From Patescibacteria group bacterium (GTDB lineage Bacteria; Patescibacteriota; Minisyncoccia; Phycocordibacterales; UBA9973), in contig JBBTUV010000003.1 of the NCBI GenBank assembly GCA_038063535.1, positions 83,179 to 147,178 of the forward strand: a stretch of 64,000 nt of DNA, in the 5' to 3' direction. The stretch's first letter is position 1. The number at the start of each line of letters is the position of its first letter. This document shows, piece by piece, positions 22,974 through 44,560 of the stretch. Below the pieces are notes generated by a model. That model made no database searches. It saw nothing but the letters and a program-made list of their open reading frames with translations, and was not told where the DNA came from. Position numbers and translations under genes: made by a program.

Positions 22974-23585
22974 ATGTTATATTCTCTAAGCATGCAAGGT
23001 GAAACATTCGTATTTTTCGGCATTGTGGGTTCCGGCAAGGGCACCCAGGTGAAACTCCTGAAAGAGTATCTTGAGAAAAAATCTGGAAGGGAGTGTGTGT
23101 ATATTGGCACGGGTGAGATCTTTAGAAAAATATTGCAGTCATCAGAAAATAATACTGACACGGAAATTGTAAAGGAAATTTTAAGTTCTGGCAGGTTAAT
23201 GCCAGATAGCGAGACTAATAAGCTCGTCGCGAATGCGATTAGGGCGCAGTGGGTGCCGGGAAAACACTTGCTTTTCGATGGCTACCCAAGAACTGTGCCT
23301 CAGTCGAAGTTTTTTGAAGAAATGACCAATTCCTACAAAATAGAAAATGTGAAAATTATTTATATTGAGCTTAGTAAAGATGAAGCAATGAAACGCAACC
23401 TGCTTCGCGGCAGGCACGATGACACGAAAGAGGGTCTCACGAAGAGGTTTGAAGAATATGAAAAAAATGTAGTACCCGCCATGAATTATTTTAAGGAAAA
23501 ATCGGGCTACACGATCTACCAAATAAATGGGGAACAGAGCATCGAGAATGTAAAGAAAGATATCATTAACGCTCTAAATTTATAA
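22974..23585 (+). CDS. adk: Adenylate kinase (short type); likely real start at internal Met (MQGETF...)
   Basis: GIVGSGKGTQ P-loop followed by NMP-binding and LID-less short form. Canonical position after secY. Confidence 0.8.
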   Translation: MLYSLSMQGETFVFFGIVGSGKGTQVKLLKEYLEKKSGRECVYIGTGEIFRKILQSSENNTDTEIVKEILSSGRLMPDSETNKLVANAIRAQWVPGKHLLFDGYPRTVPQSKFFEEMTNSYKIENVKIIYIELSKDEAMKRNLLRGRHDDTKEGLTKRFEEYEKNVVPAMNYFKEKSGYTIYQINGEQSIENVKKDIINALNL

Positions 23586-23586
23586 A

Positions 23587-24267
23587 ATGAACGAAACCAT
23601 AATCATTTCCCTGGGAGGATCCTTGATTGTGCCAGACGCCATCGACATTGAATTTTTAAAGGATTTTAAATCACTGATCCTGTCTGAAGTGGAAAAAGGA
23701 AAAAGATTCGTCATAATTACGGGCGGAGGTAAAATTGCGCGTAGATATATAGACGTCGCAAAAGATCTGGTGACACCGCCCGATGAGGATCTCGATTTTA
23801 TCGGGATAGCTGCCCTTAGGTTAAATGCGGAGCTACTAAGAGTAGTTTTCGGGAATCAGGCTTATTCAAAAGTTATTTCAGATCTATCGGGTGATCTTTC
23901 TTTTCAAGAATCGATAATCATAGGTTCGGCATATGAGCCGGGGCATAGCACGGATTGGGACGCAGTCTTGGCAGCCAAGAACAAAAAAGCGAAAAAGATC
24001 GTTAATTTGTCTAATGTAAATTATGTATATGATTCTGACCCAAATAAAAATCCCCATGCAAAAAAGATTGAAAAAATTTCCTGGGAAGAATATAAAAAAA
24101 TTATTCCGGGTAGTTGGACCTCGGGACTCAATTCTCCCTTTGACCCTACTGCGTCCGAGGAAGCGGAGGAAGCGGGGATAGAAGTGGTAATTATGAATGG
24201 AAAACCGCTTGATAATTTCGCAAATTATCTTGCGGGCAAAAGTTTTCAGGGTACAGTCATCTCTTAA
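23587..24267 (+). CDS. pyrH: Uridylate (UMP) kinase, archaeal/amino-acid-kinase type
   Basis: Amino-acid kinase fold (IISLGGSLIV...VIITGGGKIAR...). 226 aa typical of archaeal-type UMPK. Unusual location inside the spc-operon tail. Confidence 0.7.
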   Translation: MNETIIISLGGSLIVPDAIDIEFLKDFKSLILSEVEKGKRFVIITGGGKIARRYIDVAKDLVTPPDEDLDFIGIAALRLNAELLRVVFGNQAYSKVISDLSGDLSFQESIIIGSAYEPGHSTDWDAVLAAKNKKAKKIVNLSNVNYVYDSDPNKNPHAKKIEKISWEEYKKIIPGSWTSGLNSPFDPTASEEAEEAGIEVVIMNGKPLDNFANYLAGKSFQGTVIS

Positions 24268-24268
24268 T

Positions 24269-25027
24269 ATGATTGCAAAGACAAAAGAGGAGATTGAAAT
24301 CTTGCGCGAAGGGGGCAAGAGGCTCGGGGAGATTTTACAAAAAGTCGGGAAACTCGTTGCGCCGGGTATCTCTACGAAGAAGCTCGACGAGTACGCCGAG
24401 AAACTAATCCAGGAAGGCGGAGATACACCGGCTTTTTTGAATTATCAACCCGAAGGCGCGAAATATCCCTATCCGGCGAGTTTGTGCGTTTCTATAAATG
24501 ACGAAGTCGTGCACGGCATTCCGACTGCGGAGAAGATTTTAAAAGACGGCGACATTGTTGCCATTGATCTTGGCTTAAAACACCGAGGCCTATTTACTGA
24601 TGCGGCCATATCTGTGCCGGTGGGGAAAATCGATCCCGAATCAAAGAAACTACTCGAGACTACTCGCAAAGCTCTCGCGAAAGGGATTTCAGCCGCCCGC
24701 GCCGGGAATTATGTAGGCGATATAAGTTACGCCATAGAAAGCGCCATCCGCCCGCATGGCTACGGAATAGTAGAGATCCTCGCCGGGCACGGCGTTGGGC
24801 GGGCAATTCACGAAGACCCCTACGTGCCGAATTTCGGCAGGCCCGGCACGGGCGCAAAACTTGTGCCGGGGATGGTGATCGCTATCGAGCCGATGGTAAA
24901 CCTCGGAACGAAAAACGTGAAGCTTGATCCAGACGGCTACACTTACCGGACTCGCGACGGCTCACCGAGCGTCCACTTCGAGCACACGGTTTTAATAACC
25001 AACAAAGGTGCGGAAATCCTAACCTAA
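24269..25027 (+). CDS. map: Methionine aminopeptidase type I
   Basis: Pita-bread fold metal ligands (DIVAIDLG..., HGVGRAIHEDP, EPMVN). ORF-track start at 24197 is an extension overlapping pyrH. Confidence 0.92.
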   Translation: MIAKTKEEIEILREGGKRLGEILQKVGKLVAPGISTKKLDEYAEKLIQEGGDTPAFLNYQPEGAKYPYPASLCVSINDEVVHGIPTAEKILKDGDIVAIDLGLKHRGLFTDAAISVPVGKIDPESKKLLETTRKALAKGISAARAGNYVGDISYAIESAIRPHGYGIVEILAGHGVGRAIHEDPYVPNFGRPGTGAKLVPGMVIAIEPMVNLGTKNVKLDPDGYTYRTRDGSPSVHFEHTVLITNKGAEILT

Positions 25028-25046
25028 ATCTAGTATAATTATCTAG

Positions 25047-27770
25047 ATGGAGCCGTCGTTTTTTAAAGAGACTCCGAGATTCAAGACTCCGGAAGAGGAG
25101 CTTGAGTTTCTGCGCGCTCATGTGGCGCGCAGAGAGCAGGAGCTCGTGGGAAGAGGAGAAAATAAAGAGCAAGCTGTGCATGAGACGCTCGAGGCGTATA
25201 AGAAAATTCCGGCCGGAGAGCTGATTCATAAAGAGAACGCGATCGGAGAACACGAGGCGGATAAGATAGTTCTCAATCTAAAGCCGGAAGCACACGACAA
25301 GATAATGGAAGAGCTCCTTGGAATAGCGATGGCAAAAGGCATCAAGAACGCTCTTTCAGTGGTGGAGAAGATGAATAACCCGCATGTTGACGACGACTTT
25401 CACCGGCTGCTTATCCAATACATAAAAAGCGGGCCCAAAACGGAACTGAAGCAGCCTCTTCTCTCTGAACTCAATATGACTCTCTTTGAGGTCACTCTGC
25501 CGCCTCCTCAAGAAGAGGCAGACAAATCTAAGGGCTTTAAGGAGTTCATCGGCGCTATGGAGCAGTTTTATGCGGGCATGAGCTCGACCGAGGGCTATTT
25601 TACCCTTGAGGTCGCGCTTAGTGCGGCGAGCGACGAAGTGGTAGTCTACGCCGCGATCCCCAACAAATATATCTCACTATTTGAGAAACAAGTTCTCGCT
25701 TTTTATCACGACGCGAAAATCCGCGAAGTTTCCGATGACTACAATGTCTTCTCTGATATGGGCGCTTCGGTCGGCGCCTATGCCGAGCTCAAGGAGCGCG
25801 CGGTCATGCCCCTCAAGACCTACGACAATATCGATCACGACCCGATGAACACCATACTCAATGTCTTTTCAAAATTAAAGACTTCGGGTGAAGGAGCGGC
25901 GATACAGCTCGCCATTGCCCCGGCCGGAGACAAATACATCGACCAGTTCCATCATATTCTCGATGATGTGAAGGAGGGTATGTCGGTGAAGCACGCGGCG
26001 GATAATTTTTACAAGTTCAACAGGGCATTTCTGGATGTTGGTAAGGAGCTCGTCTTCGGCGTCAAGAAGCCCTCCGGTGAGAAAAAAGAGTCGGAAATGA
26101 AAGGGCGCAGGGCGGTGGACCAAGGGGCGGTCGAGAAGATCGGCAACAAAATAAAATCGAACGTGATGAAAGCGAACATTCGGGTGATCGCTTCCGCGGA
26201 GACACCGGGGCGGGCCCGGGATATACTGCGGGAAATAGAATCTTCCTTCAATCAGTTCTCCGAGGCGGCCTCGAATGCGGTCGTCTTCCTCGAGGAAAAA
26301 GGCTCGGATTTGAAGAAATTTTTCCACGATTTTTCCTATCGGGCGTTCTCCGAAGAAAAAATCATGCCGCTTAATCTCAAGGAACTTGCTTCGATCTTCC
26401 ATTTCCCGGTCGGTATCGGTTCCCAACCACAACTCAAAGAAGCCCGCTCCGGCATCGCACCTGCCCCGCTTGAGCTCGGGAGCGAAGGAATACTTCTTGG
26501 CATAAACAGCTACCGCGGGCGCGATACGGAGGTACACCTCGCGCGAGAAGACAGGATGCGGCATTTCTATGTGATCGGCCAGACCGGCACCGGAAAGACC
26601 AACATCATGCTCAATATGATCACGCAAGACATAAAGAATGGCGACGGCTGCTGCTATATAGACCCGCACGGCACGGACATCCAGACGATCCTCTCTCGAG
26701 TTCCCAAAGAGCGTGTCGATGACGTTATCTATTTCGACCCGGCGTATACAGCCAGACCAATGGGGCTCAACATGCTCGAGTATGACCCGAAGTATCCGGA
26801 GCAGAAAACTTTCGTAGTAAACGAAATGATGGGAATTTTCAATAAACTCTTTGATATGAAGATTGGGGGCGGGGCGATGTTTGAGCAATATTTCCGAAAC
26901 TCAGCGTTCCTCGTGATGGAAGACCCGACTTCAGGCTCGACCCTTCTGGAAATTACTCGCGTTTTGGCCGACAAAGAGTTTCGCGACATGAAATTAGCGC
27001 GCTGCAAGAACCCGATCATCAGGCAATTTTGGGTCTCGGCCGAGCAGACGACCGGCGACCAGTCGCTCGCAAACTTCGTGCCTTACATCTCTTCGAAATT
27101 CGACAACTTCATCTCAAATGACATCATGCGGCCGGTTGTACTGCAGCAGAATTCTGTGTTCAACTTCCGGAAGATCATGGACGAGAAGAAAATTCTCTTG
27201 GTTAACCTCTCGAAGGGGAGACTGGGGGACATAAACGCGAATCTGATCGGGCTCGTACTCGTAGGCAAGATACAGATGGCAGCGCTATCGCGAGTAGATA
27301 TGTTCGGCAAACCCATGAACGACTTCTATCTTTACATCGACGAGTTCCAGAACGTCACCACTGATTCGATCGCCTCTATCCTTTCGGAGGCGCGCAAATA
27401 CAGGCTGTCTCTTAACATCGCGCACCAGTACATCACCCAGCTTGAAGAGAACATCAAGAACGCGGTTTTCGGAAACGTCGGCTCGCTCGCAGTCTTTCGA
27501 GTGGGGACCGAGGATGCGAACTTTTTAGAAGCTAAGTTCAAGCCGATTTTCAACGCGCACGACATAACTAAACTTGAGAATTTTAATGCCTACATGTCCA
27601 TGCTGGTGGCCGGCTATCCCGTCAAACCCTTCAACCTTAAAACCCTGCCGCCTGAAGCCGGCAACCCTGGCATCGTTGACTCGCTTAAAGAACTTTCCTA
27701 CGTCAAATACGGCAGAGACAGGGGAGAAGTGGAAGCAGAAATCATGGCAAGGTTTAACACCATGCAGTAA
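25047..27770 (+). CDS. Large (907 aa) FtsK/HerA-superfamily P-loop ATPase with VirB4/VirD4(TraG/TraD)-like C-terminal domain and a ~480-aa N-terminal domain of unknown function
   Basis: Walker A GQTGTGKTN, DPHG motif, Walker B LYIDEFQN, distal LNIAHQYITQLE sensor-like motif. Architecture resembles T4SS ATPases/coupling proteins, but no other T4SS genes are nearby. Confidence 0.55.
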   Translation: MEPSFFKETPRFKTPEEELEFLRAHVARREQELVGRGENKEQAVHETLEAYKKIPAGELIHKENAIGEHEADKIVLNLKPEAHDKIMEELLGIAMAKGIKNALSVVEKMNNPHVDDDFHRLLIQYIKSGPKTELKQPLLSELNMTLFEVTLPPPQEEADKSKGFKEFIGAMEQFYAGMSSTEGYFTLEVALSAASDEVVVYAAIPNKYISLFEKQVLAFYHDAKIREVSDDYNVFSDMGASVGAYAELKERAVMPLKTYDNIDHDPMNTILNVFSKLKTSGEGAAIQLAIAPAGDKYIDQFHHILDDVKEGMSVKHAADNFYKFNRAFLDVGKELVFGVKKPSGEKKESEMKGRRAVDQGAVEKIGNKIKSNVMKANIRVIASAETPGRARDILREIESSFNQFSEAASNAVVFLEEKGSDLKKFFHDFSYRAFSEEKIMPLNLKELASIFHFPVGIGSQPQLKEARSGIAPAPLELGSEGILLGINSYRGRDTEVHLAREDRMRHFYVIGQTGTGKTNIMLNMITQDIKNGDGCCYIDPHGTDIQTILSRVPKERVDDVIYFDPAYTARPMGLNMLEYDPKYPEQKTFVVNEMMGIFNKLFDMKIGGGAMFEQYFRNSAFLVMEDPTSGSTLLEITRVLADKEFRDMKLARCKNPIIRQFWVSAEQTTGDQSLANFVPYISSKFDNFISNDIMRPVVLQQNSVFNFRKIMDEKKILLVNLSKGRLGDINANLIGLVLVGKIQMAALSRVDMFGKPMNDFYLYIDEFQNVTTDSIASILSEARKYRLSLNIAHQYITQLEENIKNAVFGNVGSLAVFRVGTEDANFLEAKFKPIFNAHDITKLENFNAYMSMLVAGYPVKPFNLKTLPPEAGNPGIVDSLKELSYVKYGRDRGEVEAEIMARFNTMQ

Positions 27771-27785
27771 TAAGATATATTTTTT

Positions 27786-28550
27786 ATGAAATTTAATTCT
27801 CTACAGTCTTTTCCGAAGTCCGCAGAAAACAGTAGGGAGGGGATAGTGGATACGCTACAACTTTTAAAAGTTGAGTCAATGTTAGGAAAGATTTACAAAT
27901 CTCACAGAGACCCAAACAAAAGAGCCGCCGCAGTTTTGCAAGAAGCTGAACCTTATTTTCGTCATATTAGTAAAGAAATTATTTCCAACGATAAAATAGA
28001 GGAAATAAAACAAGCTTTAGAGAAATATGGAAGAATCGAAGACCAGAAAGAGTTTGTAAAAAAAGTCATGGAGGCTTTAAGTGCGGTCTTTGCCCTTAGG
28101 AAAACGAACCCAAAAGAGTATGAAGAAGGGCTAGCTAGAGCAGCAAATGAAAAAGCAGGATATATAGAATTGAATAGAGTAGTAAGTTATGAAAAAAAGA
28201 GAAGAGGGATTATCGCACTTCATCATTCCTCGGCAAAAATGGTAAATCCGCTTCGGTTGAATGCTTTGTATAAGGAAGCTATGAAGAAATTAGCAAAGAT
28301 AGTTGCGGCTGATCCTGAGGTGAGACAGATTGAAGCTATTTCTTGGATTGTAGCAAAAGCCCCTGCTCTCTTTACAGAAAATGGCTTTACCGTAGAAAGA
28401 ATGAGAGATCTACCTAATTTGGATTATTTATCTCCTGTCACTTCGGGCGATATGAAAGACCAGCAGGGAAAGAGAATAGCTCTAGCGGTTATAAAAAGAG
28501 AAGATTTTTTGAATAGGTTTTTAGAAAAAAATGACAATGGAAGAATTTGA
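27786..28550 (+). CDS. Hypothetical protein (254 aa), AT-rich; translationally coupled to downstream CYTH gene
   Basis: Intact ORF, 20-nt overlap with the next gene. No recognisable motif. Confidence 0.45.
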   Translation: MKFNSLQSFPKSAENSREGIVDTLQLLKVESMLGKIYKSHRDPNKRAAAVLQEAEPYFRHISKEIISNDKIEEIKQALEKYGRIEDQKEFVKKVMEALSAVFALRKTNPKEYEEGLARAANEKAGYIELNRVVSYEKKRRGIIALHHSSAKMVNPLRLNALYKEAMKKLAKIVAADPEVRQIEAISWIVAKAPALFTENGFTVERMRDLPNLDYLSPVTSGDMKDQQGKRIALAVIKREDFLNRFLEKNDNGRI

Positions 28551-29127
28551 AATAAAATTTTTGGAAGTTAATGTGCCGGAGCTCGAGAAGAAGCTCCTCT
28601 CGATTGGGGCGGAGAAAGTGGGGGAATATGATCAACACATGTTTCTTTTTGATTATCCGGATTTTCGCTTAGATAAGGATCATTCTTGGGTAAAACTTAG
28701 AACTAACGGTAAGGAAACCACATTATCTTATAAGCAAAGAATAGGAGTAAAGTCGACGGATGGAAGTATCCCGGATCAAGGTATGAAAGAAATAGAAGTC
28801 GTAGTAGATAATTTTGAGAAGGTGTATGAGATATTTCTGGCTATGAGTTTTGTTATAAAAAGAGAAGTTCGAAACAGAAGACTGCGCTATAAGAAAGAAA
28901 GTTCTGTATTTGATATCGATTTTTGGCCTGAGATTCCTCCGTATGTGGAAGTCGAAGCAGACTCGCTTGAAAATGTGAAAAAGGCAGCAAGAGAACTTGG
29001 GTTTGACTCAGACAAGGGCCTTGTATGTTCTCCCCTCCAAGTCTATGCCCATTACGGATACGATATGGATCAATATAATTCTGTTACGCTAGAAGGCGGT
29101 TTAAAAAAAGTTGATTTTGCAAATTAA
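28531..29127 (+). CDS. CYTH-domain protein (triphosphate tunnel metalloenzyme / CyaB-like class IV adenylyl cyclase family)
   Basis: N-terminal EFEIKFLEV = ExExK signature of the CYTH fold. Size ~200 aa. Confidence 0.65.
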   Translation: MTMEEFEIKFLEVNVPELEKKLLSIGAEKVGEYDQHMFLFDYPDFRLDKDHSWVKLRTNGKETTLSYKQRIGVKSTDGSIPDQGMKEIEVVVDNFEKVYEIFLAMSFVIKREVRNRRLRYKKESSVFDIDFWPEIPPYVEVEADSLENVKKAARELGFDSDKGLVCSPLQVYAHYGYDMDQYNSVTLEGGLKKVDFAN

Positions 29128-29154
29128 ATTTTTTCTGTTAAGATAACAATCAAT

Positions 29155-29739
29155 ATGAAACACCCGAAAGAGGAACAGACGTTTGTCTTGGTGAAACCCG
29201 ACGGGGTCCGGAAGGGCCTGACGGGCGAGACAATCCGCCGCTTTGAGCAAAGGGACTTGAAGATAGTCGCTCTTGAGATGTTTTCTCCGACGCATGAGCT
29301 CCTTGATACGCATTACCCGAAAGACGAAGCATGGATAACCCGCCTGGGCGAGAAAACCAAGGCAACTTACGAGAAATACGGATACGACATGCTCGCGGAT
29401 TTTGGCACGACCGACACGGCGAAGGTTGGCCCGGAGATAAGGAAGTGGCTGGTTGACTACATGAAGAGCGCACCCCTTGTAAAAATGATCGTGCAGGGCG
29501 TTCACGCCGTTGACGTGGTCCGAAAGATCGCAGGGCCGACGATGCCGTACCTTGCCGAGGTCGGCACTATCCGCGGAGACTTCTCCATCGACTCTCCAGC
29601 CTTGGCAAACAAAGAAAAACGTGCCGTGATGAACATTTTGCATTGCTCCGAAACCGCCGAGGAAGCCGAACATGAGATCAAGCACTGGTTTGGCGCTTCG
29701 AAAACACACGATTATAAAAGATTCGGGGTTGACGAATAA
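29155..29739 (+). CDS. ndk: Nucleoside diphosphate kinase (divergent, with insertions)
   Basis: N-terminal ...TFVLVKPDGVRKGLTGETIRRFE... and catalytic-His region NILHCSET match the NDK pattern (NxxHGSD). Confidence 0.7.
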   Translation: MKHPKEEQTFVLVKPDGVRKGLTGETIRRFEQRDLKIVALEMFSPTHELLDTHYPKDEAWITRLGEKTKATYEKYGYDMLADFGTTDTAKVGPEIRKWLVDYMKSAPLVKMIVQGVHAVDVVRKIAGPTMPYLAEVGTIRGDFSIDSPALANKEKRAVMNILHCSETAEEAEHEIKHWFGASKTHDYKRFGVDE

Positions 29740-29955
29740 GTACGAGCAGCGGGCGAGCATTCGAAAACACTAAATTATTATTGTCTATACTTGCGCAAAG
29801 GCAGGAGAGGGGTAGACTTAAGGTAGGGTTATTTTTAATTATTACCTAGAACAATATTTTTTGGGAACTTCGATCGCGCTCAGCCTTGGCCCTGCACGTC
29901 TGGTACCCACCTAAGCGAGAGCTATGGTAATAAATTGGGAATAGCCCTAAGAAAG

Positions 29956-29985
29956 AATCCGCCGCTTCAAAAGGCGGATTTTTTC
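29956..29985 (+). terminator. Rho-independent terminator AATCCGCC-GCTTCAAAA-GGCGGATT followed by T6
   Basis: Perfect 8-bp stem plus U-tract seen directly. Lies 28 nt upstream of the next start codon (attenuator-like geometry). Confidence 0.7.
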
Positions 29986-30012
29986 GTACTAATCGGATAT
30001 AATACTTATAAG

Positions 30013-30372
30013 ATGCAAAAGGACAAACAACCGATTTTCGTCGCCGGGTTCATTTTTTTAATTTTGATCATAAACTTCGCGGCGATGAAGTTCCACTGGT
30101 ATTACACAATTGCCTGGTTCGACATGCCGATGCACTTTCTCGGGGGGCTCTGGATCGGCTTTGCTCTATTTTACTTCGCGCGAGGCGAGCTGTCTTTTGT
30201 AAAATTCATCGGTTGGGTACTCGGAATAGGAGTTTTGTGGGAAGTGTTCGAACTTTTTAACAATCACTACTTCGGCACTCAAGATCCGTTTGATCTTCTC
30301 GACACACTTTCCGATTTTCTGTTTGATCTCTTGGGCGGAACTGCGGCATATTTGATGAAGCAAAAACGATGA
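30013..30372 (+). CDS. Small integral membrane protein (~120 aa, possibly VanZ-like)
   Basis: 3-4 hydrophobic segments. C-terminal ...HYFGTQDPFDLLDTLSDFLFDLLGG... loosely resembles VanZ-family motif. ORF-track start at 29935 would run through the terminator. Confidence 0.4.
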   Translation: MQKDKQPIFVAGFIFLILIINFAAMKFHWYYTIAWFDMPMHFLGGLWIGFALFYFARGELSFVKFIGWVLGIGVLWEVFELFNNHYFGTQDPFDLLDTLSDFLFDLLGGTAAYLMKQKR

Positions 30373-31733
30373 AGGGTATAGCCACAATTACATTTTCCGG
30401 AGGCGCTGGGTCGGTGACCGGCTCGAATTTCCTTTTCGAAGCGGACGGAAAGAAAATCCTGGTCGACTGCGGACTGCTGCAGGGAGTCAAGCTCGCTGAC
30501 GATATCAACTGGGAGCCCTTTCCATATGAGCCGAAAGAAGTCGACATTCTTTTTGTCACCCATGCCCATGTGGATCATCTCGGGAGGATCCCGAAACTCC
30601 TAGCCGAAGGCTTTCGAGGGAAAATTTTATCGACGCCGCCCACTCGCGCACTCGCCGGGCCGATGCTCGATGATGCGGCGGGGATACTCCGAGGGAACCC
30701 GCATTTTGCGCTCGAGAAAATTTACACGGAAGAGCGTCTCCGAGAAACACTTTCTCTCTGGCAGTCGGTTGATTATCACGCGCCGATTAAGATCACCGAA
30801 AATCTCTCAGCAACGCTCCTCAATTCCGGCCACATTCTTGGCTCAGCGATGGTGGAATTTATTTTTCACGGGAAAAAGATACTTTTCACAAGCGACTTAG
30901 GGAACAGCCCGTCTCTCCTTCTACCCGATAATGAGCGCGTTACCGACGCAGATTATCTCGTGATCGAGAGCGTCTATGGCGACCGAAACCACGAATCCCA
31001 CGCGGAACGACGGGCAGCGCTTGAAAGGATCATTCAAGAAAACTACACCCGCAAGGGGACGCTCCTTATCCCGGTATTTTCCCTCGAGCGCTCGCAGGAG
31101 CTTCTTTTTGAGCTCAATAACTTAGTCGAAGAAAAAAGAATACCGATCATGCCGATTTTCTTCGATTCGCCGCTCGCTATACGTCTCACTGAGATATTCA
31201 AGCGCTATAAGGATTATTTCAACGACCGAGCCCAGGCGGCGATGGTGCACGATAAGTACCTCTTTGATTTCCCGGGCCTGCATTCGACCCTAAAATCAAG
31301 CGAGTCGAAGATGATAGACGAGGTCCCGAACCCGAAGATCATTATCGCGGGTTCCGGTATGTCCTCGGGCGGACGGATAATTTTTCACGAAAGGAGATTT
31401 TTGCCAGACCCGAACAACACAATACTCCTCGCCGGTTACCAATCAGCCGGCACGCCCGGGCGCCTGATTCAGGAAGGAGTAAGGACGGTACGGATCGGGG
31501 GCGAATTTACGGTGGTACGTGCGCGCGTGGTCACCATTTCGGGGTACTCCGGGCACAAGGATTCGGACGGGTTGCTCGAGTTCGTTGCCGGGATGGAGAA
31601 GCGAGTGAAAAAAGTATTTGTGGTGATGGGAGAGCAGAAATCGGCGATGTATCTCACGCAGAAAATCCGAGACAACTCAAATATCGACGCCTACGCGCCG
31701 GAGCGGGGAGACAAAGTCACGCTTGAGTGCTAA
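30369..31733 (+). CDS. Beta-CASP family metallo-beta-lactamase-fold ribonuclease (RNase J-like / CPSF-like)
   Basis: MBL motif HAHVDHLG near N-terminus. Beta-CASP region with conserved D/H motifs. 454 aa. Confidence 0.7.
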   Translation: MKGIATITFSGGAGSVTGSNFLFEADGKKILVDCGLLQGVKLADDINWEPFPYEPKEVDILFVTHAHVDHLGRIPKLLAEGFRGKILSTPPTRALAGPMLDDAAGILRGNPHFALEKIYTEERLRETLSLWQSVDYHAPIKITENLSATLLNSGHILGSAMVEFIFHGKKILFTSDLGNSPSLLLPDNERVTDADYLVIESVYGDRNHESHAERRAALERIIQENYTRKGTLLIPVFSLERSQELLFELNNLVEEKRIPIMPIFFDSPLAIRLTEIFKRYKDYFNDRAQAAMVHDKYLFDFPGLHSTLKSSESKMIDEVPNPKIIIAGSGMSSGGRIIFHERRFLPDPNNTILLAGYQSAGTPGRLIQEGVRTVRIGGEFTVVRARVVTISGYSGHKDSDGLLEFVAGMEKRVKKVFVVMGEQKSAMYLTQKIRDNSNIDAYAPERGDKVTLEC

Positions 31734-32899: not shown

Positions 32900-34237
32900 A
32901 TGCTTAACGATTCAATTTTCAAGGCCTACGATGTTCGAGGCGTTTACCCCACCGATTTAAACGAGGAAACAGCTTATCTAATAGGGAGGGCATTTGGTGC
33001 GTACGCAAAAGCGGAAAAAATGGTGGTCGGTTGTGACGCCCGACTTTCTTCCCCCCAATTACTGAAAAGTCTTACCGCAGGGATAAATTCACAAAGCATT
33101 TCAGTTATTGATATCGGGTTGTGTCCCGTTGAATTGATTTATTTTGCAGTAGCAAGTAATGATTTTGATGCCGGAATAATGATAACTGCTAGCCATAATC
33201 CTAAACAATATAATGGCTTTAAGATGGTTGTGAAGGTGGGCAGTGACGTAAGTATTATTCCCGGGAGAGAACTTCTGCCCCATGTAGAAGAAATCAAAGA
33301 AATTACTGAAACCTCTAGTAAGAAGTTATCTGATATTAATTTTCAAGATGAGTATCAGAAATATATTTTAAAATTTTGCAATTTAAAGGATATCAAGAAA
33401 TTCAAAATAGTTATCGATGCTTCTAATGGCGTAGCAGGTAGAACCATTTCTTTGCTGGAGTCCCAACTTCCTGCTGATATCATTAAATTGAATTTTGATC
33501 CTGATGGCAACTTTCCCAATCACTCCCCGAACCCGCTTGAATTAAACGCGAGAGATCAAATAACAGAAGCCGTAAAGGAAAATAAGGCAGATTTTGGATT
33601 AATATTTGATGCGGACGGGGATAGAATATTTCTGATCGATGAATTGGGCAATTTTGTACCTGCGGATATCACTCTTCTTTTTTTAGCCAGACATTTTTTA
33701 AAGGGAGCAAAGAGCGCGCCTATCATTTACAACCTTATTTGCTCTAGGGCGGTGCCACAATTTATAAGAAAATGGGGTGGTAAAGCAGTACGAACGGCGG
33801 TGGGGTTTGTAAACGTTCAAAAAGAATTAAAAAAAAGTGGCGGCGCAATGGGCGGTGAACTCTCGGGTCATTATTGCTTCCGTGATTTTTTTAACATGGA
33901 TTCAGGCATTTTCCCGTTCTTAATCCTGTTAGAGGTTTTTTCCAAGGACAACCGAAATATTTCAGAAATGGTTAAAGAACTCAGTTTGTACTCCAAAGTT
34001 GCAGTAAATTTTGAGGTGAGCGACAAAGAAAAAATCTTGGAAAAATTAAAAAAAGAATATGCAGACGGTCAGCAAGATTTTTTGGACGGTATAACTATAG
34101 AATACTCTAATTGGTGGTTTAATGTCCGACCTTCCAACACTGAGCCAATCTTGCGTTTAACCATCGAAGCTGATACGCAAAATTTATTGAGTGAAAAGAC
34201 AAAAGAGATAGAGGAATTTATAAACGTAAATAAATAA
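32900..34237 (+). CDS. Phosphohexomutase (phosphoglucomutase/phosphomannomutase/GlmM family)
   Basis: Active-site TASHNP(KQYNGFK), metal-binding DADGDR, sugar-binding GELSGH motifs. 445 aa. AT-rich codon usage. Confidence 0.8.
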   Translation: MLNDSIFKAYDVRGVYPTDLNEETAYLIGRAFGAYAKAEKMVVGCDARLSSPQLLKSLTAGINSQSISVIDIGLCPVELIYFAVASNDFDAGIMITASHNPKQYNGFKMVVKVGSDVSIIPGRELLPHVEEIKEITETSSKKLSDINFQDEYQKYILKFCNLKDIKKFKIVIDASNGVAGRTISLLESQLPADIIKLNFDPDGNFPNHSPNPLELNARDQITEAVKENKADFGLIFDADGDRIFLIDELGNFVPADITLLFLARHFLKGAKSAPIIYNLICSRAVPQFIRKWGGKAVRTAVGFVNVQKELKKSGGAMGGELSGHYCFRDFFNMDSGIFPFLILLEVFSKDNRNISEMVKELSLYSKVAVNFEVSDKEKILEKLKKEYADGQQDFLDGITIEYSNWWFNVRPSNTEPILRLTIEADTQNLLSEKTKEIEEFINVNK

Positions 34238-37046: not shown

Positions 37047-37120
37047 CCGCCCTTAGCTCAGCTGGTTAGAGCACAGAGCTTATACCTCTGGGGTCCTTGG
37101 TTCGAGTCCAAGAGGGCGGA
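37047..37120 (+). tRNA. tRNA-Ile with anticodon UAU (TAT)
   Basis: Cloverleaf: acceptor CCGCCCT/AGGGCGG. D-arm GCTC...GAGC. Anticodon stem CAGAG/CTCTG with loop CTTATAC (U33, anticodon TAT, A37). T-arm CTTGG-TTCGAGT-CCAAG. Discriminator A. No encoded CCA. Confidence 0.85.
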
Positions 37121-37124
37121 CTTT

Positions 37125-38078: not shown

Positions 38079-38618
38079 ATGGATGTTTATAAAAAAAACT
38101 GGCTAAAGTTTGTTCTCGCAATAATTGCCTGCTTTCTGATTAGAATTATACCATTTCGTCCACCGAATGTGGAACCGATTCTTGCAACCCAGATGCCTTT
38201 TAGTAAGGTCTACGGAGCTTACGTGGGCTTTATATTTGCATTTTTGAGTATTATCTTGTTCGATCTGGCGACCAGCACCTTTGGAGTATGGAGTTTCCTT
38301 ACTTCGACCACCTATGGAGTTCTGGGAATCGCTGGAGCCTACTATCTTAGGAACCGTAAAGCTAACTCTTGGAATTTTGCCAAGTTTGCAATAGTCGGGA
38401 CGCTTTTCTTCGATGCCGTAACCGGCCTCTCTATCGGGCCCCTCTTTTTTAGTCAGCCCTTCTCCGAAGCATTTTTCGGGCAGATCCCGTTCACTCTTTG
38501 GCACCTCCTCGGCAACGTTTCCTTCGCGCTTGTTCTCTCACCAGCCATCTATCGCTATGTAGTTGAGAATAAAAAATTAGAGATATATGCCAAAAGCGAA
38601 AAAATATTTACAACTTAA
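38079..38618 (+). CDS. Multi-pass membrane protein resembling ECF-transporter S components (candidate cobalamin S-component, CbrT/BtuM-like)
   Basis: ~180 aa with 5-6 TM helices typical of S components. First gene of an apparent operon with nrdJ and cobO. Substrate assignment is by context only. Confidence 0.35.
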   Translation: MDVYKKNWLKFVLAIIACFLIRIIPFRPPNVEPILATQMPFSKVYGAYVGFIFAFLSIILFDLATSTFGVWSFLTSTTYGVLGIAGAYYLRNRKANSWNFAKFAIVGTLFFDAVTGLSIGPLFFSQPFSEAFFGQIPFTLWHLLGNVSFALVLSPAIYRYVVENKKLEIYAKSEKIFTT

Positions 38619-40860
38619 AAAAATTCAGAAACGCGACGGCATGATCGTGCCTTTTGACGAGCGCAGGATCGAGCGTGCGGTTTTCCGCGCGATGAACGCC
38701 GCTGGAGAGGGAGGGGAAAAAGAAGCAGAAGCGGCGATGTATAAGGTTTTAGACGCCCTGCTTGTTCTTAAAGAAGAGGAAAAAAATAAGAACTTTATTC
38801 CTTCGGTTGAAAAGATCCAAGATGTGGTGGAGAACGAGTTGATTGCTGCCAATTTTATTCAAACCGCGAAGGCCTACATTTTATATCGCAAGGAGCGCTC
38901 AATCGTGAGGCAGAAAGTCGGTTTTGTCCCGGAGAAAGTGAAAGAGTTGGTGGCTCTAAGCAGAAAATATTTCCGCAACCCTCTGGCAGAGTTTGTTTAC
39001 TATCGCACTTATTCGCGCTGGATTCCGGACGAGGGCCGGCGAGAGACCTGGATCGAGACCGTGAGTCGCTATATGGATTTTATGCGGGAGAGTTTAAACT
39101 CGAAGCTAACTGAGGCGGAATATGGGGAAATCCGGGAGGCGATTTTAAACCAGGAAACGATGCCTTCGATGCGACTCCTCCAATTTGCCGGCCGGGCCGC
39201 TCGTCGGACCAATGTTTGCGCCTATAATTGTTCCTTTATCGCGCCGCGCACTTTTCAGGATTTTGCCGAGATCATGTATATCTCCATGTGTGGCACTGGA
39301 GTTGGTTGGTCGGTGGAAAGTGAAAATATCCAGTCGTTGCCACAGATAAAAAAACAAACTGGCAAAGTTTTGCCCCCCTATATCATCCCAGACAGCAAAG
39401 AAGGCTGGGCGGACGCTTTCGCCTTCGGACTTAAGACCTGGTTTTCCGGAAGTGACGTTACCTTCGACTATTCGCTCATCCGCCCGGCTGGCTCGATTTT
39501 AAAGACGATGGGCGGAAAAAGTTCCGGACCGGAACCGCTCCGGGCGCTGCTTGAATTTTCCCGGGAGCGAATTTTGCGGAGGCAGGGCCGCCGCTTGTCC
39601 AATTTGGATGCGCATGACATCATCTGTAAAATCGGAGAGTGCGTGGTCGCGGGCGGCGTAAGGAGGAGCGCGATGATCTCGCTCTCCGATCTTGATGATG
39701 AAGCAATTCGCGATTCGAAAAAAGGACAATTCTACACAACCGAAGCGCAAAGAATGCTCGCCAATAACTCCGCGGTTTATTCCTCAAAGCCAACCGCCGC
39801 CGAATTCTTGGACGAGTGGGTCGCGCTGGCAAAGTCCGGGTCCGGCGAGAGAGGAATTTTTAATCGCGGTAATCTCTCGAAAACTCTTCCTCCGAGACGT
39901 CTCGCGCAGTGGAAAGACGGGAAATATCCGAGCTGGGGGACCAACCCCTGCGGGGAAATCGTGCTGCAATCGAAGCAATTCTGTAACTTGAGCGAAATTA
40001 TTGCCCGCTCGAATGACACTGAAGAAACCTTGATAAAAAAAATAAGAATCGCCACGATTTTGGGAACTTACCAGGCAACCCTCACCTACTTCCCGTATCT
40101 ATCAGCAGAGTGGAAGAAAAACTGCGAAAAGGAACGTTTACTCGGTGTTTCAATAACCGGCCAATGGGACTCCAAAGCGGTCCGGCATCCGAAAACTCTC
40201 CTGCGTCTACGACAAGTCGCTATTGAAACCAATAAAAAATACGCTAAACGCTTTGGTATTAGTCCGTCCACTTGCATCACTTGCGTGAAGCCTTCTGGAA
40301 ACCTTTCACAGACGGTCAATTCCTCCTCCGGCATGCATCCGCGGCACTCAGAGTATTATATTCGCCGTGTTCGGATTTCGACGACTGATGCTTTGTTTAA
40401 GATGCTTAAAGACCAAGGGGTGCCGTATTTTCCCGAGGTTGGCCAGACCAAAGAAGAAGCGACAACATATGTGTTGGAGTTTCCGGTGAAATCTCCCGAA
40501 GGCGCGATTTTCCGCGACGACTTGACCGCACTAGAGCAGCTTGAACACTGGAAGATCGTGAAAGAAAATTACACAGAGCATAACCCTTCGGTTACGATCT
40601 CGGTCGGTGAGGATGAATGGTTGGCAGTTGGCAACTGGGTTTACGAAAATTGGGACATCGTCGGAGGACTTTCCTTTCTTCCTCGCGAGAACCACGTTTA
40701 TCAGCTCGCTCCTTACGAAGCGATATCAAAGGAGAAGTACGAGGAGATGCTCTCCCATGTAAAAGACCTCGATTTTTCCAAGATCGTGACCTACGAGAAG
40801 GTCGACGAGACGGAAGTAAAAAAAGAATTAGCCTGCGTGGCGGGGGTTTGCGAAGTTTAA
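38587..40860 (+). CDS. nrdJ: Adenosylcobalamin-dependent ribonucleotide reductase, class II, with N-terminal ATP-cone
   Basis: ATP-cone (KIQKRDGMIVPFDERRIERAV). 757-aa RNR ten-stranded barrel region. C-terminal Cys pair (...ELACVAGVCEV). Adjacent cob(I)alamin adenosyltransferase. Confidence 0.75.
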   Translation: MPKAKKYLQLKKIQKRDGMIVPFDERRIERAVFRAMNAAGEGGEKEAEAAMYKVLDALLVLKEEEKNKNFIPSVEKIQDVVENELIAANFIQTAKAYILYRKERSIVRQKVGFVPEKVKELVALSRKYFRNPLAEFVYYRTYSRWIPDEGRRETWIETVSRYMDFMRESLNSKLTEAEYGEIREAILNQETMPSMRLLQFAGRAARRTNVCAYNCSFIAPRTFQDFAEIMYISMCGTGVGWSVESENIQSLPQIKKQTGKVLPPYIIPDSKEGWADAFAFGLKTWFSGSDVTFDYSLIRPAGSILKTMGGKSSGPEPLRALLEFSRERILRRQGRRLSNLDAHDIICKIGECVVAGGVRRSAMISLSDLDDEAIRDSKKGQFYTTEAQRMLANNSAVYSSKPTAAEFLDEWVALAKSGSGERGIFNRGNLSKTLPPRRLAQWKDGKYPSWGTNPCGEIVLQSKQFCNLSEIIARSNDTEETLIKKIRIATILGTYQATLTYFPYLSAEWKKNCEKERLLGVSITGQWDSKAVRHPKTLLRLRQVAIETNKKYAKRFGISPSTCITCVKPSGNLSQTVNSSSGMHPRHSEYYIRRVRISTTDALFKMLKDQGVPYFPEVGQTKEEATTYVLEFPVKSPEGAIFRDDLTALEQLEHWKIVKENYTEHNPSVTISVGEDEWLAVGNWVYENWDIVGGLSFLPRENHVYQLAPYEAISKEKYEEMLSHVKDLDFSKIVTYEKVDETEVKKELACVAGVCEV

Positions 40861-40866
40861 ATTACC

Positions 40867-41391
40867 ATGATGCTGCTTGCTTTTACAGGGAATGGCAAAG
40901 GGAAAACCACGGCGGCGCTCGGGAACGCTCTGCGGCTCCTCGGGGCGGGCAAGCGCGCTCTGATGGTGCAGTTTATCAAAGGGCCGTGGGAATCAGGCGA
41001 GCATAAATCAAGCGCCCGCCTTGAACCGGATCTCAAGATCATAAAAACCGGCAAGGGCTTTGTGGGGATTCTCGGGGACAATTTGCCGATCGAAGAGCAC
41101 CGAGAAGCTGCCGAGGAAGGATTTAAGGTAGCGCGTAAGGAAATTGCCGGGGGCAAATACCATCTCCTTATCTTAGATGAAGTCCATAACGCGATCCGGC
41201 TCGGACTCGTGCCCATTTCTTTTGTGCTCGCATTTCTCGACTATGCCCGCGACAAAGTGGAATATGTTATCACGACCGGCCGAGACGCAGCCAAAGAAAT
41301 TATTGACCGAGCCGATCTGGTGACAGAGATGCGCGACGTGAAACACCCGTTTAAAAAGGGCGTCAAAGCAAAGGTCGGAGTAGATTATTAG
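40867..41391 (+). CDS. cobO: Cob(I)yrinic acid a,c-diamide / cob(I)alamin adenosyltransferase (CobO/CobA/BtuR family)
   Basis: P-loop TGNGKGKTTAALG and QFIKG...LDE motifs characteristic of CobA/BtuR. 174 aa. Confidence 0.85.
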   Translation: MMLLAFTGNGKGKTTAALGNALRLLGAGKRALMVQFIKGPWESGEHKSSARLEPDLKIIKTGKGFVGILGDNLPIEEHREAAEEGFKVARKEIAGGKYHLLILDEVHNAIRLGLVPISFVLAFLDYARDKVEYVITTGRDAAKEIIDRADLVTEMRDVKHPFKKGVKAKVGVDY

Positions 41392-41404
41392 ATTATTAGG
41401 TTTT

Positions 41405-41558
41405 TAACAACTGAAGACGTCTTGCGTTTGGAAGTGAGGTTTAATTCCTCCACTGTGCCGCAACGGTAATCTGCAAAAGCAGTAGTCCGGTCGTTACGTA
41501 AGATGTATCCCGAGCAGGATGTTCGTTCATGAGTCGCCTGCTCTTAGCAGGTTTTTTT
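41405..41558 (+). promoter_or_regulatory. Candidate cobalamin riboswitch with intrinsic terminator expression platform (terminator GCCTGCT-CTT-AGCAGGC + T7 at ~41536-41558)
   Basis: GAGGTTTAATTCCTCCACTGTGCCGCAACGGTAA resembles the conserved cobalamin-aptamer core (GGUGAAAAUCC...CCCGCCACUGU, recalled from memory). The downstream AGCAGGATG...CCTGC is B12-box-like. An alternative anti-terminator pairing GAGCAGG/CCTGCTC is possible. Located between cobO and the DUF4430 gene. Confidence 0.55.
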
Positions 41559-41566
41559 ATTAAAAT

Positions 41567-42454
41567 ATGAAAAAAATAATTTTTGCTTCCATTATCCTTC
41601 TAACTTTTGGCCGGATTGCTTGGGCAGAAGAGGAAATATTGCCTCCTCCACCGGAGGAAGCCGTGGTTGAAGAAGCTCTGCCAGAACCAATTCCCGAACC
41701 GGAAGTAGTCCCCGAAGTCGAGTTTAGTATTCAAGATGGAGATTTTGCTCTCGAGAAAAGTCTCCACCTTCCGGAAGAGGGCAATGTCTCAATAGAGGGG
41801 CATGATGTGGATGCGCGCAGCGTTTTAGCGGTTCTTTATGCTTGGGACGAGGAGAGTAGTGACTTCGAAATTTCCGAGCTCATTTACTACCCATCATTCT
41901 CCGCTTTCTACGTGAAATGCATAACGCTTGAAGAAGAGAAATGCGACTATTGGATGTACAAGGTAAATAGTGAAGCGCCCTCGGTCGGGATGGATAGTTT
42001 CATTCTCGAAGCGGGCGATCAGGTGGAAATTTATTTTGACGACTCCTTCTTCGGTGAGCCGGAGGAAGATCCTCCGCCGGAAGTTGTGGAAGGTCCTCCC
42101 GAGGAAGAAGAAGGACCGCGAATAACGAGTTCAGGAAGCAGAGGGAAGTCGAGGGAGCCCGAAGAACCCAAGGAAGTGCCAACTGAAGAAGTTATCGTGG
42201 CCGCCCCTGCGGCGCCGCCGGTAGTTCCGGCAATTGTGCCTCCGCCGGTTGTATCCAAAGTTGCAAAAGCCGAGCCGGTCCAAGAGACACAGGAGCAAAT
42301 AGCTACAATCCCAGTATTAGAACCTCCGCCGATCGGACTTTCCGCCGCGCCCATCGAGAGTGGAAATTCTCCAAAAGCTCCGATTGTACTCGGCGGGATT
42401 GCCGCACTTCTGGTTTTGATTTTTCTGGGCAAGAGATTTCTAATGAAAAATTAG
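41567..42454 (+). CDS. Secreted/membrane-anchored DUF4430-like protein (putative surface cobalamin-binding protein) with Pro/Glu-rich low-complexity linker
   Basis: Signal peptide MKKIIFASIILLTFGRIAWA. Motif DYWMYKVNSEAPSVGMDSFILEAGDQVEIYF matches the DUF4430 hallmark (WMY.VNG...L..GD.I.W.Y). C-terminal TM anchor. Sits directly downstream of the riboswitch-like leader. Confidence 0.6.
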   Translation: MKKIIFASIILLTFGRIAWAEEEILPPPPEEAVVEEALPEPIPEPEVVPEVEFSIQDGDFALEKSLHLPEEGNVSIEGHDVDARSVLAVLYAWDEESSDFEISELIYYPSFSAFYVKCITLEEEKCDYWMYKVNSEAPSVGMDSFILEAGDQVEIYFDDSFFGEPEEDPPPEVVEGPPEEEEGPRITSSGSRGKSREPEEPKEVPTEEVIVAAPAAPPVVPAIVPPPVVSKVAKAEPVQETQEQIATIPVLEPPPIGLSAAPIESGNSPKAPIVLGGIAALLVLIFLGKRFLMKN

Positions 42455-42818: not shown

Positions 42819-43058
42819 ATGTTGACCGATTTCATACAAAAAAGGCTAAAAAGCGCTAAATATAAAATCTTGAAAGACAGAAGTTATTTCGGGGAAATTA
42901 CTGGGATGAGAGGGGTTTGGGCTAACGCAAGAACTCTCGAGGCATGCAGGAAAGAGCTTCAAGAAGTGCTTGAAGATTGGCTGGTTCTATCTATCAAGCG
43001 CGATAAGAATATTCCCGGCTTCAATTTCCCGAGTGCTCGAATTTTGAGAGATGCCTAG
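42819..43058 (+). CDS. hicB: HicB-like antitoxin (UPF0150 family)
   Basis: YFGEITGMRGVWANARTLEACRKELQEVLEDWL matches the HicB N-domain pattern (GE.P.L.GC.A.G.T.EEA....EA...W). Confidence 0.65.
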   Translation: MLTDFIQKRLKSAKYKILKDRSYFGEITGMRGVWANARTLEACRKELQEVLEDWLVLSIKRDKNIPGFNFPSARILRDA

Positions 43059-43263
43059 GGCAGTCTCAGCCAGGAAGCTTATCGAAAACCTCCGACTCTT
43101 TGGTTTTACCGGCCCGTATTCGGGAGGCAGGCACATGTTCATGATCAAAGGAAATTTGAAACTGCGAATCCCTAATCCCCACCACGGCGATATTTCTAAG
43201 AGCTTGCTTTCCGAGATCCTTCGTCAGGCCGGAATTTCCGCAAGCGAGTGGAATAAGTTATAA
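43051..43263 (+). CDS. hicA: HicA-like mRNA interferase toxin (YcfA family)
   Basis: KLIENLRLFGFTGPYSGGRHMFM...IPNPHHGDISKSLLSEILRQAGIS matches HicA (K.L...GW...R..GSH....HP......V.P.H.....GT...I.KQAG). Gene order is antitoxin-first. Confidence 0.65.
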   Translation: MPRAVSARKLIENLRLFGFTGPYSGGRHMFMIKGNLKLRIPNPHHGDISKSLLSEILRQAGISASEWNKL

Positions 43264-43276
43264 TAAAAGTTTTTTC

Positions 43277-43305
43277 TTGACTTTTTAACTCAAAAGGTGT
43301 ATAAT
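43277..43305 (+). promoter_or_regulatory. Near-consensus sigma70 promoter TTGACT-17 bp-TATAAT upstream of the DGR target gene
   Basis: Seen directly. A ~150-nt leader follows before the SD AAGGAGA and the ATG at 43456. Confidence 0.6.
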
Positions 43306-43455
43306 TGAAAGGTAAATAAGTTCTTTCAAGCTACTTGTTTACCTGCCTCTGGTGGGCAAAAAGTCGCCCTAGCTTTGAGCGCATAATTTTTTGTGCTTTC
43401 GGAGCTATGGCGACACCTCGGTCGCCTAGCGGACTCATATTTAAGGAGAACGGCA

Positions 43456-44097: not shown

Positions 44098-44164
44098 TAC
44101 TTAGGACTTAGTCACTGTGGTCTTTTTGACACTTTGACTTTTGTCCTGCATTGGATTTACCTAG

Positions 44165-44542: not shown

Positions 44543-44560
44543 CCCACTTCTTTCTCTCCT

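Follow-up and report, generated by a model that had tools for sequence, protein, structure and literature searches.

The four forward-strand genes between positions 25,047 and 29,739 of a 64,000-nucleotide (nt) stretch of Patescibacteria group bacterium contig JBBTUV010000003.1 (assembly GCA_038063535.1; the whole stretch is called the window, and all coordinates are given within it) encode a motor ATPase, an orphan protein termed p254, a CYTH-family triphosphate-tunnel metalloenzyme, and a nucleoside diphosphate kinase (NDK, gene ndk). The region is likely to consist of conserved core synteny in a Nomurabacteria-type patescibacterium together with an accessory cassette, p254 and CYTH, held in a variable slot; it is not considered to be a four-gene functional module. 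The components belong to known families; what is new is the modeled VirB4-type fold of DUF8128, the conservation of the ATPase at the level of SecY, a putative leaderless-type promoter, a variable phosphohydrolase slot ahead of ndk, and an uncatalogued RNA.

A species scan with one genome per species gave 80 loci carrying the ATPase at 63-83% identity, onto which the window proteins were mapped. The order secY, cmk (minus strand), adk, UMP-kinase-like gene, map, ATPase, slot, ndk, non-coding RNA (ncRNA), DUF2238, beta-CASP is kept in these 80 related species, with rplT/infC lying beyond the beta-CASP gene. The map gene is found 5' of the ATPase in 78 of 82 loci (gap below 150 nt in 45), and ndk 3' of the ATPase in 68 of the 72 loci with enough flank, with or without CYTH (within 150 nt in 35). 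Given these counts, an spc operon that ends at map and is followed by the ATPase and then ndk is the clade-wide norm and no recent replacement; an earlier sequence-only reading, which proposed that a four-gene unit had replaced the distal ribosomal genes, is contradicted on this point. Its observation that the operon lacks its usual distal genes holds, as infA, rpmJ, rpsM, rpsK, rpsD, rpoA, and rplQ are undetected by tblastn in the whole window. Co-conservation of the neighborhood is partial: the order ATPase-CYTH-ndk recurs in about 15 of the 80 related species, and all four genes occur in order on one further contig, L086, whose ndk is of the short type. Universal ATPase-ndk synteny combined with a popular insertion site accounts for this recurrence. 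A protein identical to the window CYTH is present on contigs of Hainich groundwater assemblies with the same gene order; the group to which the organism belongs is one of ultra-small bacteria of groundwater. The features of the locus are:

24269-25027, forward strand: map (methionine aminopeptidase; Pfam Peptidase_M24, 6.9e-45), context, final gene of the spc-type ribosomal operon
25034-25039, forward strand: putative ATPase -10 box TATAAT, ending 7 nt 5' of the ATG; no Shine-Dalgarno sequence
25047-27770, forward strand: motor ATPase, 907 amino acids (aa), 19-nt spacer 3' of map
26577-26600, forward strand: Walker A motif GQTGTGKT, ATPase residues 511-518
27339-27350, forward strand: Walker B motif DEFQ, ATPase residues 765-768
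27846-28550, forward strand: p254, likely extent; first read as an open reading frame (ORF) at 27786-28550 (254 aa) with a 15-nt spacer after the ATPase
28537-29127, forward strand: CYTH/triphosphate-tunnel metalloenzyme, 196 aa, AT-rich accessory gene
29117-29144, forward strand: putative ndk promoter from sequence, TTGCAA (29117-29122), 16 nt, TGT-TAAGAT (29136-29144)
29155-29739, forward strand: ndk, long form, 194 aa, 27-nt spacer after CYTH
29813-29818, forward strand: -10-like box TAGACT upstream of the ncRNA
29823-29984, forward strand: structured ncRNA (core 29823-29954; terminator 29958-29984)
29998-30003, forward strand: putative DUF2238 -10 box TATAAT, 9 nt before the ATG
30013-30372, forward strand: DUF2238 membrane protein, context, conserved pair with the beta-CASP gene
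30369-31733, forward strand: beta-CASP metallo-beta-lactamase RNase-type protein, context, conserved pair with the DUF2238 gene

The interval between the ATPase and ndk is an insertion hotspot; it is empty in about half of the species and its contents vary among the remainder. A CYTH orthologue (39-63% identity) occupies the slot of about 15 loci, L086 included, and lies immediately 5' of ndk (28-114 nt) in 13 of the 14 loci carrying CYTH; extra slot genes are placed between the ATPase and CYTH, so that CYTH stays beside ndk. Other loci have in this place a member of one of two Nudix families (8 loci), an ITPase-type enzyme assigned to NTPase_I-T/DUF84 (2 loci), or a second CYTH type; further occupants are NADAR, a cytidylyltransferase, a 23S-IVS four-helix protein, DUF559, HicAB, RelE/antitoxin, an IS200-like gene, an arginase-family gene, an ABC1-type kinase (assigned from sequence only), and others. 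The GC content of the ATPase and ndk genes is 50.8% and 53.2%, compared with 36.7% for p254 and 38.2% for CYTH, which places the latter two 13-16 points under the flanking genes in the window; CYTH is 4-14 points under its flanks in every genome examined, with the largest gap in GC-richer genomes. The closest relatives, L001 and L004, have neither p254 nor CYTH. This absence, together with the low GC, points to a relative of lower GC as the probable source of the p254-CYTH cassette, p254 arriving with CYTH and both probably entering by recombination in the conserved flanks. Acquisition had been proposed from composition for the unit as a whole; it applies to p254 and CYTH, which alone look imported, and not to the ATPase and ndk, which appear native.

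The four ORFs, their arrangement, the drop in GC, and a terminator hairpin are all present where the sequence-only reading had placed them, and its gene identities hold: a VirB4/VirD4-like FtsK/HerA-superfamily ATPase with an extra N-domain, an orphan, a CYTH protein with intact ExExK, and an NDK. Its figures for GC (52% and 40%) and spacers (16-28 nt) were slightly off, the actual values being 50.8% and 36.7-38.2% with spacers of 19, 15, and 27 nt. Gene starts can be refined by comparison. The map gene stops at 25027 and probably starts at 24269, giving a 252-aa protein that matches relatives; p254 probably starts at GTG 27846, preceded by an AGGGAGG Shine-Dalgarno sequence, and a length of 234 aa is more likely since an identical database protein begins at this codon. 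The CYTH ORF as first read starts at 28531 and overlaps the p254 ORF by 20 nt; all orthologues, as well as the identical protein as called by NCBI, start at ATG 28537 (MEEFEIKF), which reduces the overlap to 14 nt. The Pfam scan assigned TraG-D_C, TrwB_AAD_bind, and a weak DUF87 match to the ATPase, CYTH at 8.6e-11, and NDK at 5.8e-33 in two stretches.

The ATPase (DUF8128 family; VirB4/T4CP-like, T4CP being a type IV coupling protein) begins with a lineage-specific helical extension at residues 1-130 that is common to close relatives; residues ~136-470 form a VirB4-NTD-like domain (the N-terminal domain type of VirB4), and residues ~480-907 a TrwB/HerA-like motor with an all-alpha insert. Residues G511, G514, and K517 of Walker A are invariant in 63 homologues, down to 30% identity, and D765 and E766 of Walker B as well as E781, R783, and K784 are likewise invariant in this 63-member alignment; based on these residues the protein is predicted to be an active ATPase. 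Sequence searches returned short, weak matches only, those in the PDB being to the Walker-A regions of DotL, TrwB, and HerA; in Pfam, TrwB_AAD_bind scored 23.4 bits (cut-off 20.5) and TraG-D_C 24.7 bits (cut-off 22). The protein falls under the NCBIfam TraD/VirD4 cut-offs (SXT_TraD 43 vs 366 bits, TOL TraD 36 vs 648, CD1115 32 vs 250), and neither VirB4 profile (CagE_TrbE_VirB or VirB4) is among its Pfam/NCBIfam matches. The N-terminus is hydrophilic and helical by hydropathy and by the AlphaFold2 (AF2) model; no transmembrane helix was found, the top 19-residue Kyte-Doolittle mean (1.54) lying at residue 729 inside the motor domain. AF2 models reached predicted local distance difference test (pLDDT) values of 86.7 and 89.1. 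Through Foldseek the model matches TrwK/VirB4 over its full length (E 5e-14), and the C-domain matches TrwB (TM 0.63-0.69), HerA, DotL, and DndH-C. The N-domain that the sequence-only reading had left unassigned is thereby modeled as VirB4-like; profile searches with p254, suggested alongside, came back empty.

The ATPase therefore resembles two families of the type IV secretion system (T4SS) and departs from both. It shares with VirB4 a VirB4-type N-domain followed by a C-terminal motor; it is only 10-12% identical to TrwK/VirB4 (R388; PDB 7o42, 8rtd), however, has no Pfam or NCBIfam VirB4 match, and has no virB3, virB6, or virB8 neighbor in view. The patescibacterial VirB4 is a gene separate from the window ATPase, and in Paceibacteria it lies near dnaA and dnaN (PMC12102498). 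With TrwB/VirD4/TraD (PDB 1e9r, 1gki; DotL 6sz9) the ATPase shares a P-loop nucleotide-binding domain with Walker A and B plus an all-alpha domain, and the motor with its all-alpha insert superposes on TrwB; the N-terminal transmembrane anchor of T4CPs is replaced by the VirB4-like N-domain, a relaxase/T4SS neighborhood is lacking, and scores stay below the TraD/VirD4 cut-offs given above. Neither a relaxase nor a T4SS is found within 7-10 kb in the window or in the related and distant loci with listed genes. The 2025 survey of Patescibacteria reported 5,713 VirD4-type T4CP homologues in 2,918 of 3,035 genomes, only 148 of them near virB4, and its authors state that exaptation cannot be ruled out (PMC12102498); the window ATPase is probably one of these homologues. 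According to the same survey, the T4CP homologue of S. epibionticum is not essential for epibiotic growth (PMC12102498).

Over 82 loci the mean identity of the ATPase is 75.7%, which compares with 77.3% for SecY, 78.4% for L20, 73.6% for IF3, 66.7% for map, and 53.7% for adk. Since its GC also matches that of core genes, the ATPase is best regarded as a native core protein under multiple constraints. More than 100 database clusters are ~80% identical to it over the full length, all named Nomurabacteria, Paceibacteria, or Patescibacteria; the family extends to 4,970 clusters (50% identity) at E <1e-30, with full-length matches down to ~32% identity. Precomputed Pfam annotation gives DUF8128 (PF26449) on all homologues and on the gene of the same position and length in L089, a locus with the identical CYTH; a local Pfam scan gave no PF26449 match on the window ATPase itself, and the family assignment is made through these homologues and L089. 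The window protein is thus an ordinary DUF8128 member with the domain order of the family, from which it is distinguished only by the ~130-residue N-extension. A literature search for "DUF8128" found no papers, and the VirB4-type fold predicted for the family is an addition of this analysis.

Distant DUF8128 members (32-45% identity) lie beside yqeY (twice) or near scpAB, rmuC, recR-dnaB, or gyrB; others form tandem paralogue pairs beside secDF (twice), and one is a 2,006-aa fusion, such pairs and fusions of 2,000 aa being unlike the single gene of the window. T4SS genes never adjoin the distant members in the loci examined. A firm partner gene was sought among these lineages and none emerged, as the neighbors vary. 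The paired paralogues belong to more distant Patescibacteria (L092:2581-7985 and L094:1909-8216), on the same strand beside secD/secF; they adjoin in L092, and L094 has a 174-aa ORF between them; the pairing hints at hetero-oligomeric motors and fits the roughly two "T4CP homologues" per genome in the literature. ATPase residues 181-906 match phrog_5156 (function not known) at 1e-80, and the large Bacillus phages CP-51 and phage G, along with TP-84 of Geobacillus, encode relatives at 21-25% identity; the family thus extends to phages of Firmicutes. These matches were taken as distant family members, and the phage link was set aside as a sign of mobility of the ATPase.

The CYTH protein matches Pfam PF01928 with 42.4 bits (cut-off 23.2). 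Fourteen orthologues conserve both its ExExK motif (E5-x-E7-x-K9) and, further along the chain, the R, K, ExE, R, D, and ExE residues; relative to known triphosphate-tunnel enzymes (2dc4, CyaB, inorganic triphosphatases), the window protein keeps ExExK and the acidic and basic residues of the tunnel. The nearest PDB entry is 2dc4, a 165-aa hypothetical protein, and the window subfamily is seen only in Patescibacteria. NCBI labels the identical protein a class IV adenylate cyclase and the closest NCBIfam model is cyaB; the score for the cyaB equivalog TIGR00318 is 35.5 bits against a cut-off of 57.95, and on this account the protein is predicted to be a triphosphate-tunnel hydrolase rather than an adenylate cyclase.

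The p254 protein is a rare orphan and an AT-rich accessory gene product, with only 5 homologues among 5.8 billion proteins. Its gene lies between the ATPase and CYTH in L086, in the same slot but three genes from CYTH in L009, and in an unrelated pilM-containing context without CYTH in L084. No match was found in Pfam, NCBIfam, PADLOC, PHROGs, or the PDB profile search, and no function emerged from neighborhood analysis; assignment to YkoP was rejected, the Pfam match being sub-threshold (17 vs 27 bits). The PHROGs scan was also without a match for CYTH and ndk.

The ndk product is a long-form NDK with a ~43-aa insertion, scoring 114 bits against a Pfam NDK cut-off of 27; because of the insertion it misses the NCBIfam equivalog cut-offs. 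Among PDB entries the best match, at 1.6e-47 over residues 7-181, is the 195-aa nucleoside diphosphate kinase 1xqi, in which NLVHASD aligns with the catalytic histidine motif NILHCSE; the window protein is a Pyrobaculum-like long form with the same length and ~40-residue insertion as 1xqi, from which it differs in having a bacterial host. Two non-orthologous NDK types are found at this one locus, the long 194-aa form in 34 loci and a canonical form of ~150 aa in another 34; the canonical form is only 28-37% identical to the long one (e.g., L003:11110-11583 vs L001:13152-13736), and this is in-place displacement. With cmk-like, adk, UMP-kinase-like, and ndk genes the locus has four nucleotide kinases inside 7 kb, and CYTH, Nudix, and ITPase-type enzymes alternate next to ndk; together these suggest nucleotide-pool maintenance as its theme, a reading drawn from family names. 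In the window adk and the amino-acid-kinase-family gene (22974-24267), as well as a phosphomannomutase/phosphoglucomutase-family gene (32900-34237), have 38-41% GC against a background of ~50%; in the nearest relative, L001, adk and the amino-acid-kinase-family gene have 48-49%. Mosaic allele replacement from low-GC relatives is suggested for these three genes.

Core genes at the locus appear to carry promoters of their own. In 63 of 74 related loci the start codon of the ATPase has a (TGn)TATAAT box at one fixed distance, irrespective of the preceding gene; as the box ends 7 nt 5' of this codon, the ATPase seems to have a promoter of its own that yields a leaderless mRNA. An element of the form TTTTGCAAA...TTTCTGCTA(G/A)(T/A)AT lies 5' of ndk in most related loci regardless of the upstream gene, and in the window its -35 box overlaps the 3' end of CYTH; a conserved promoter of its own (putative, TTGCAA-N16-TGnTAAGAT) is therefore inferred for ndk. 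The tight co-transcription with the ribosomal operon stated in the sequence-only reading becomes doubtful in view of these promoter-like boxes. No forward-strand terminator is predicted between 25047 and 29958, so read-through from map to ndk is possible. Across core genes of the lineage (25034-25046, 29998-30012, and 29117-29154 in the window; loci L001-L083) a (TGn)TATAAT box appears to stand 7-10 nt 5' of the ATG with no Shine-Dalgarno sequence, which suggests that leaderless or near-leaderless transcription is widespread; where genes carry such promoters, short intergenic gaps would not imply operons.

The strong terminator that the sequence-only reading placed ~220 nt after ndk is present, as a terminator-like hairpin at 29958-29978 with a T-run to 29984; it belongs to a separate, uncatalogued RNA gene supported by covariation. 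The region is conserved in 69 related loci at 70-88% nucleotide identity (blastn) and invariably lies just ahead of the DUF2238 gene, including in loci with ndk over 1 kb distant. By alignment and RNAalifold the ncRNA (~165 nt) consists of a 23-bp closing helix, an asymmetric internal loop (~14 and 17 nt), and an inner stem-loop rich in compensatory changes; the terminator stem covaries as well. In the 132-nt core 99.1% of cells are paired compared with 35-47% for slid controls, and double-change cells number 163 (shuffles, 37±10). With a covariance model a single copy is recovered in the window, at 133 bits, and loci of the deeper clade score 51-90 bits. Rfam gave no family match at the gathering score, and at permissive E-values in three species returned chance-level terminator, leader, and microRNA-precursor matches only. 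The rod-with-central-bubble shape and the stand-alone signals are the basis for reading it as a 6S-like RNA, which is quite possible if somewhat short of probable; as a longer shot, it could be the missing 6S-type RNA of this lineage. The main alternative is a leader of the DUF2238/beta-CASP genes. A riboswitch was regarded as a less likely option: a closing helix of 23 bp seems too stable for switching, no conserved anti-terminator accompanies the freely covarying terminator stem, and the DUF2238 gene has its own -10 box. A search of the literature on 6S or other ncRNA of the candidate phyla radiation (CPR) found nothing useful.

The proposed working of the locus starts from a native, soluble motor of the FtsK/HerA/VirB4/VirD4 lineage with a VirB4-type N-domain (DUF8128) and a TrwB-like nucleotide-binding domain. 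By analogy the ATPase most likely forms a hexameric ring in which ATP hydrolysis would move or remodel a polymer substrate; it most likely feeds this substrate to patescibacterial T4SS-like or DNA-uptake envelope machinery encoded elsewhere, cytoplasmic DNA handling of the FtsK/HerA type being the next option. Fold and conservation are the observed parts of this scheme, and oligomer, substrate, and partners are the inferred ones. A native ndk with its own putative promoter would complete the local nucleotide-kinase cluster; the alternation of CYTH, Nudix, and ITPase-type enzymes just before ndk is consistent with "house-cleaning" or balancing of the nucleoside triphosphate (NTP) pool around NDK, where CYTH is predicted to hydrolyze a triphosphate, possibly inorganic or nucleoside, in a metal-dependent tunnel. 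Several observations weigh against this account. T4SS, competence, and DNA-repair genes are absent within 7-10 kb in every locus examined, so the link of the ATPase to an envelope machine is one of homology alone; many slot genes are unrelated to nucleotides, and the house-cleaning view of the slot derives from family names; the promoters and the leaderless start are drawn from sequence; and CYTH abuts the ATPase stop in some loci, as taken up below. A rival explanation, unlikely though worth retaining, makes the ATPase a housekeeping motor confined to the cytoplasm, an FtsK/HerA-like DNA translocase or repair enzyme unrelated to secretion or uptake: the protein is soluble and lacks a membrane anchor, its structural matches include HerA and DndH-C, distant members lie beside scpAB, rmuC, recR-dnaB, and gyrB, and conservation is extreme.

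The idea that the four genes form one acquired nucleotide-signaling or nucleotide-depletion module of a defense-like kind, co-transcribed with the ribosomal operon, was the proposal of the sequence-only reading and is now very improbable, being largely refuted by the synteny and conservation data. It could draw on the four-gene order shared with L086, the ATPase-CYTH-ndk order of about 15 species, the lack of a predicted terminator before 29958, and a weak resemblance of the motor to HerA and mad8 defense ATPases; against these, 68 of 72 loci have the ATPase and ndk as neighboring core genes with or without CYTH, the ATPase has core-gene GC and SecY-level conservation, both genes have putative conserved promoters of their own, unrelated genes fill the slot elsewhere, and one of the 5 homologues of p254 sits in an unrelated context. 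PADLOC gave no match for p254, CYTH, and ndk (3 of the 4 proteins), and the ATPase showed only partial mad8 (1e-11) and HerA P-loop matches, which leaves the defense link unsupported. A narrower functional tie is improbable; in it, the motor would be under the control of a signal, a nucleotide or triphosphate, that CYTH produces or degrades, and the translationally coupled position of CYTH, last on the ATPase transcript, would follow from this role. In about 8 loci the CYTH start is 0-19 nt from the ATPase stop with no promoter between, so that CYTH must there ride on the ATPase transcript, and the cyaB model and NCBI name would suit a signaling enzyme; CYTH is missing, however, from about 80% of ATPase-bearing species, is separated from the ATPase by inserted genes and keeps to ndk, is replaced at the same position by Nudix and ITPase-type genes in other species, and scores below the cyaB cut-off. 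The most far-reaching extension, a long shot, is that the DUF8128 ATPase, part VirB4 and part coupling protein, is essential, occurs throughout the Patescibacteria, and was exapted from conjugation, and that in this lineage it would act as a cytoplasmic motor importing or processing host-derived nucleic acid; the nucleotides would then be re-phosphorylated and cleaned by cmk, adk, the UMP-kinase-like enzyme, CYTH/Nudix, and ndk, making the locus a scavenging center. Conserved core synteny with an accessory cassette remains the preferred reading of the region.

In the window the four genes are preceded by fusA, pyrimidine-synthesis genes, tuf, the S10 and spc ribosomal genes, and secY; between secY and the ATPase lie a cytidylate-kinase-like gene (minus strand), adk, an amino-acid-kinase-family gene (UMP-kinase type), and map. 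They are followed by DUF2238, beta-CASP, rplT-rpmI-infC (minus strand), the phosphomannomutase/phosphoglucomutase-family gene (PGM_PMM domains), smpB, transfer-messenger RNA, and ftsH. A tRNA-Ile with anticodon UAU is encoded at 37047-37121 (forward strand; ARAGORN); reading of AUA by a UAU tRNA-Ile is uncommon in bacteria, most of which use a lysidine-modified CAU anticodon. At 38587-42454 (forward strand) a B12-dependent (class II) ribonucleotide reductase with an ATP-cone is followed by a corrinoid adenosyltransferase, and an adenosylcobalamin riboswitch (41403-41546, Rfam 55.7 bits) lies 5' of a DUF4430 protein; this stretch looks like a compact cobalamin-linked unit for deoxynucleotide supply. 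Besides HicB-like (UPF0150) and HicA toxin genes and a 355-aa reverse transcriptase (RVT_1, 9e-25), the segment at 42819-45934 (forward strand) holds small ORFs and the gene of an uncharacterized 234-aa protein; it is likely a mobile or defense islet.

The analysis removes a false lead, as no new defense or signaling module is present at the locus, and it indicates that an apparent operon continuation in these genomes can be illusory. The Patescibacteria are a very large, mostly uncultured group that depends on hosts for building blocks. In the few cultivable strains, a VirB4/T4CP-like ATPase that is soluble, conserved at the level of SecY, and without T4SS neighbors is a concrete candidate for genetics and biochemistry.

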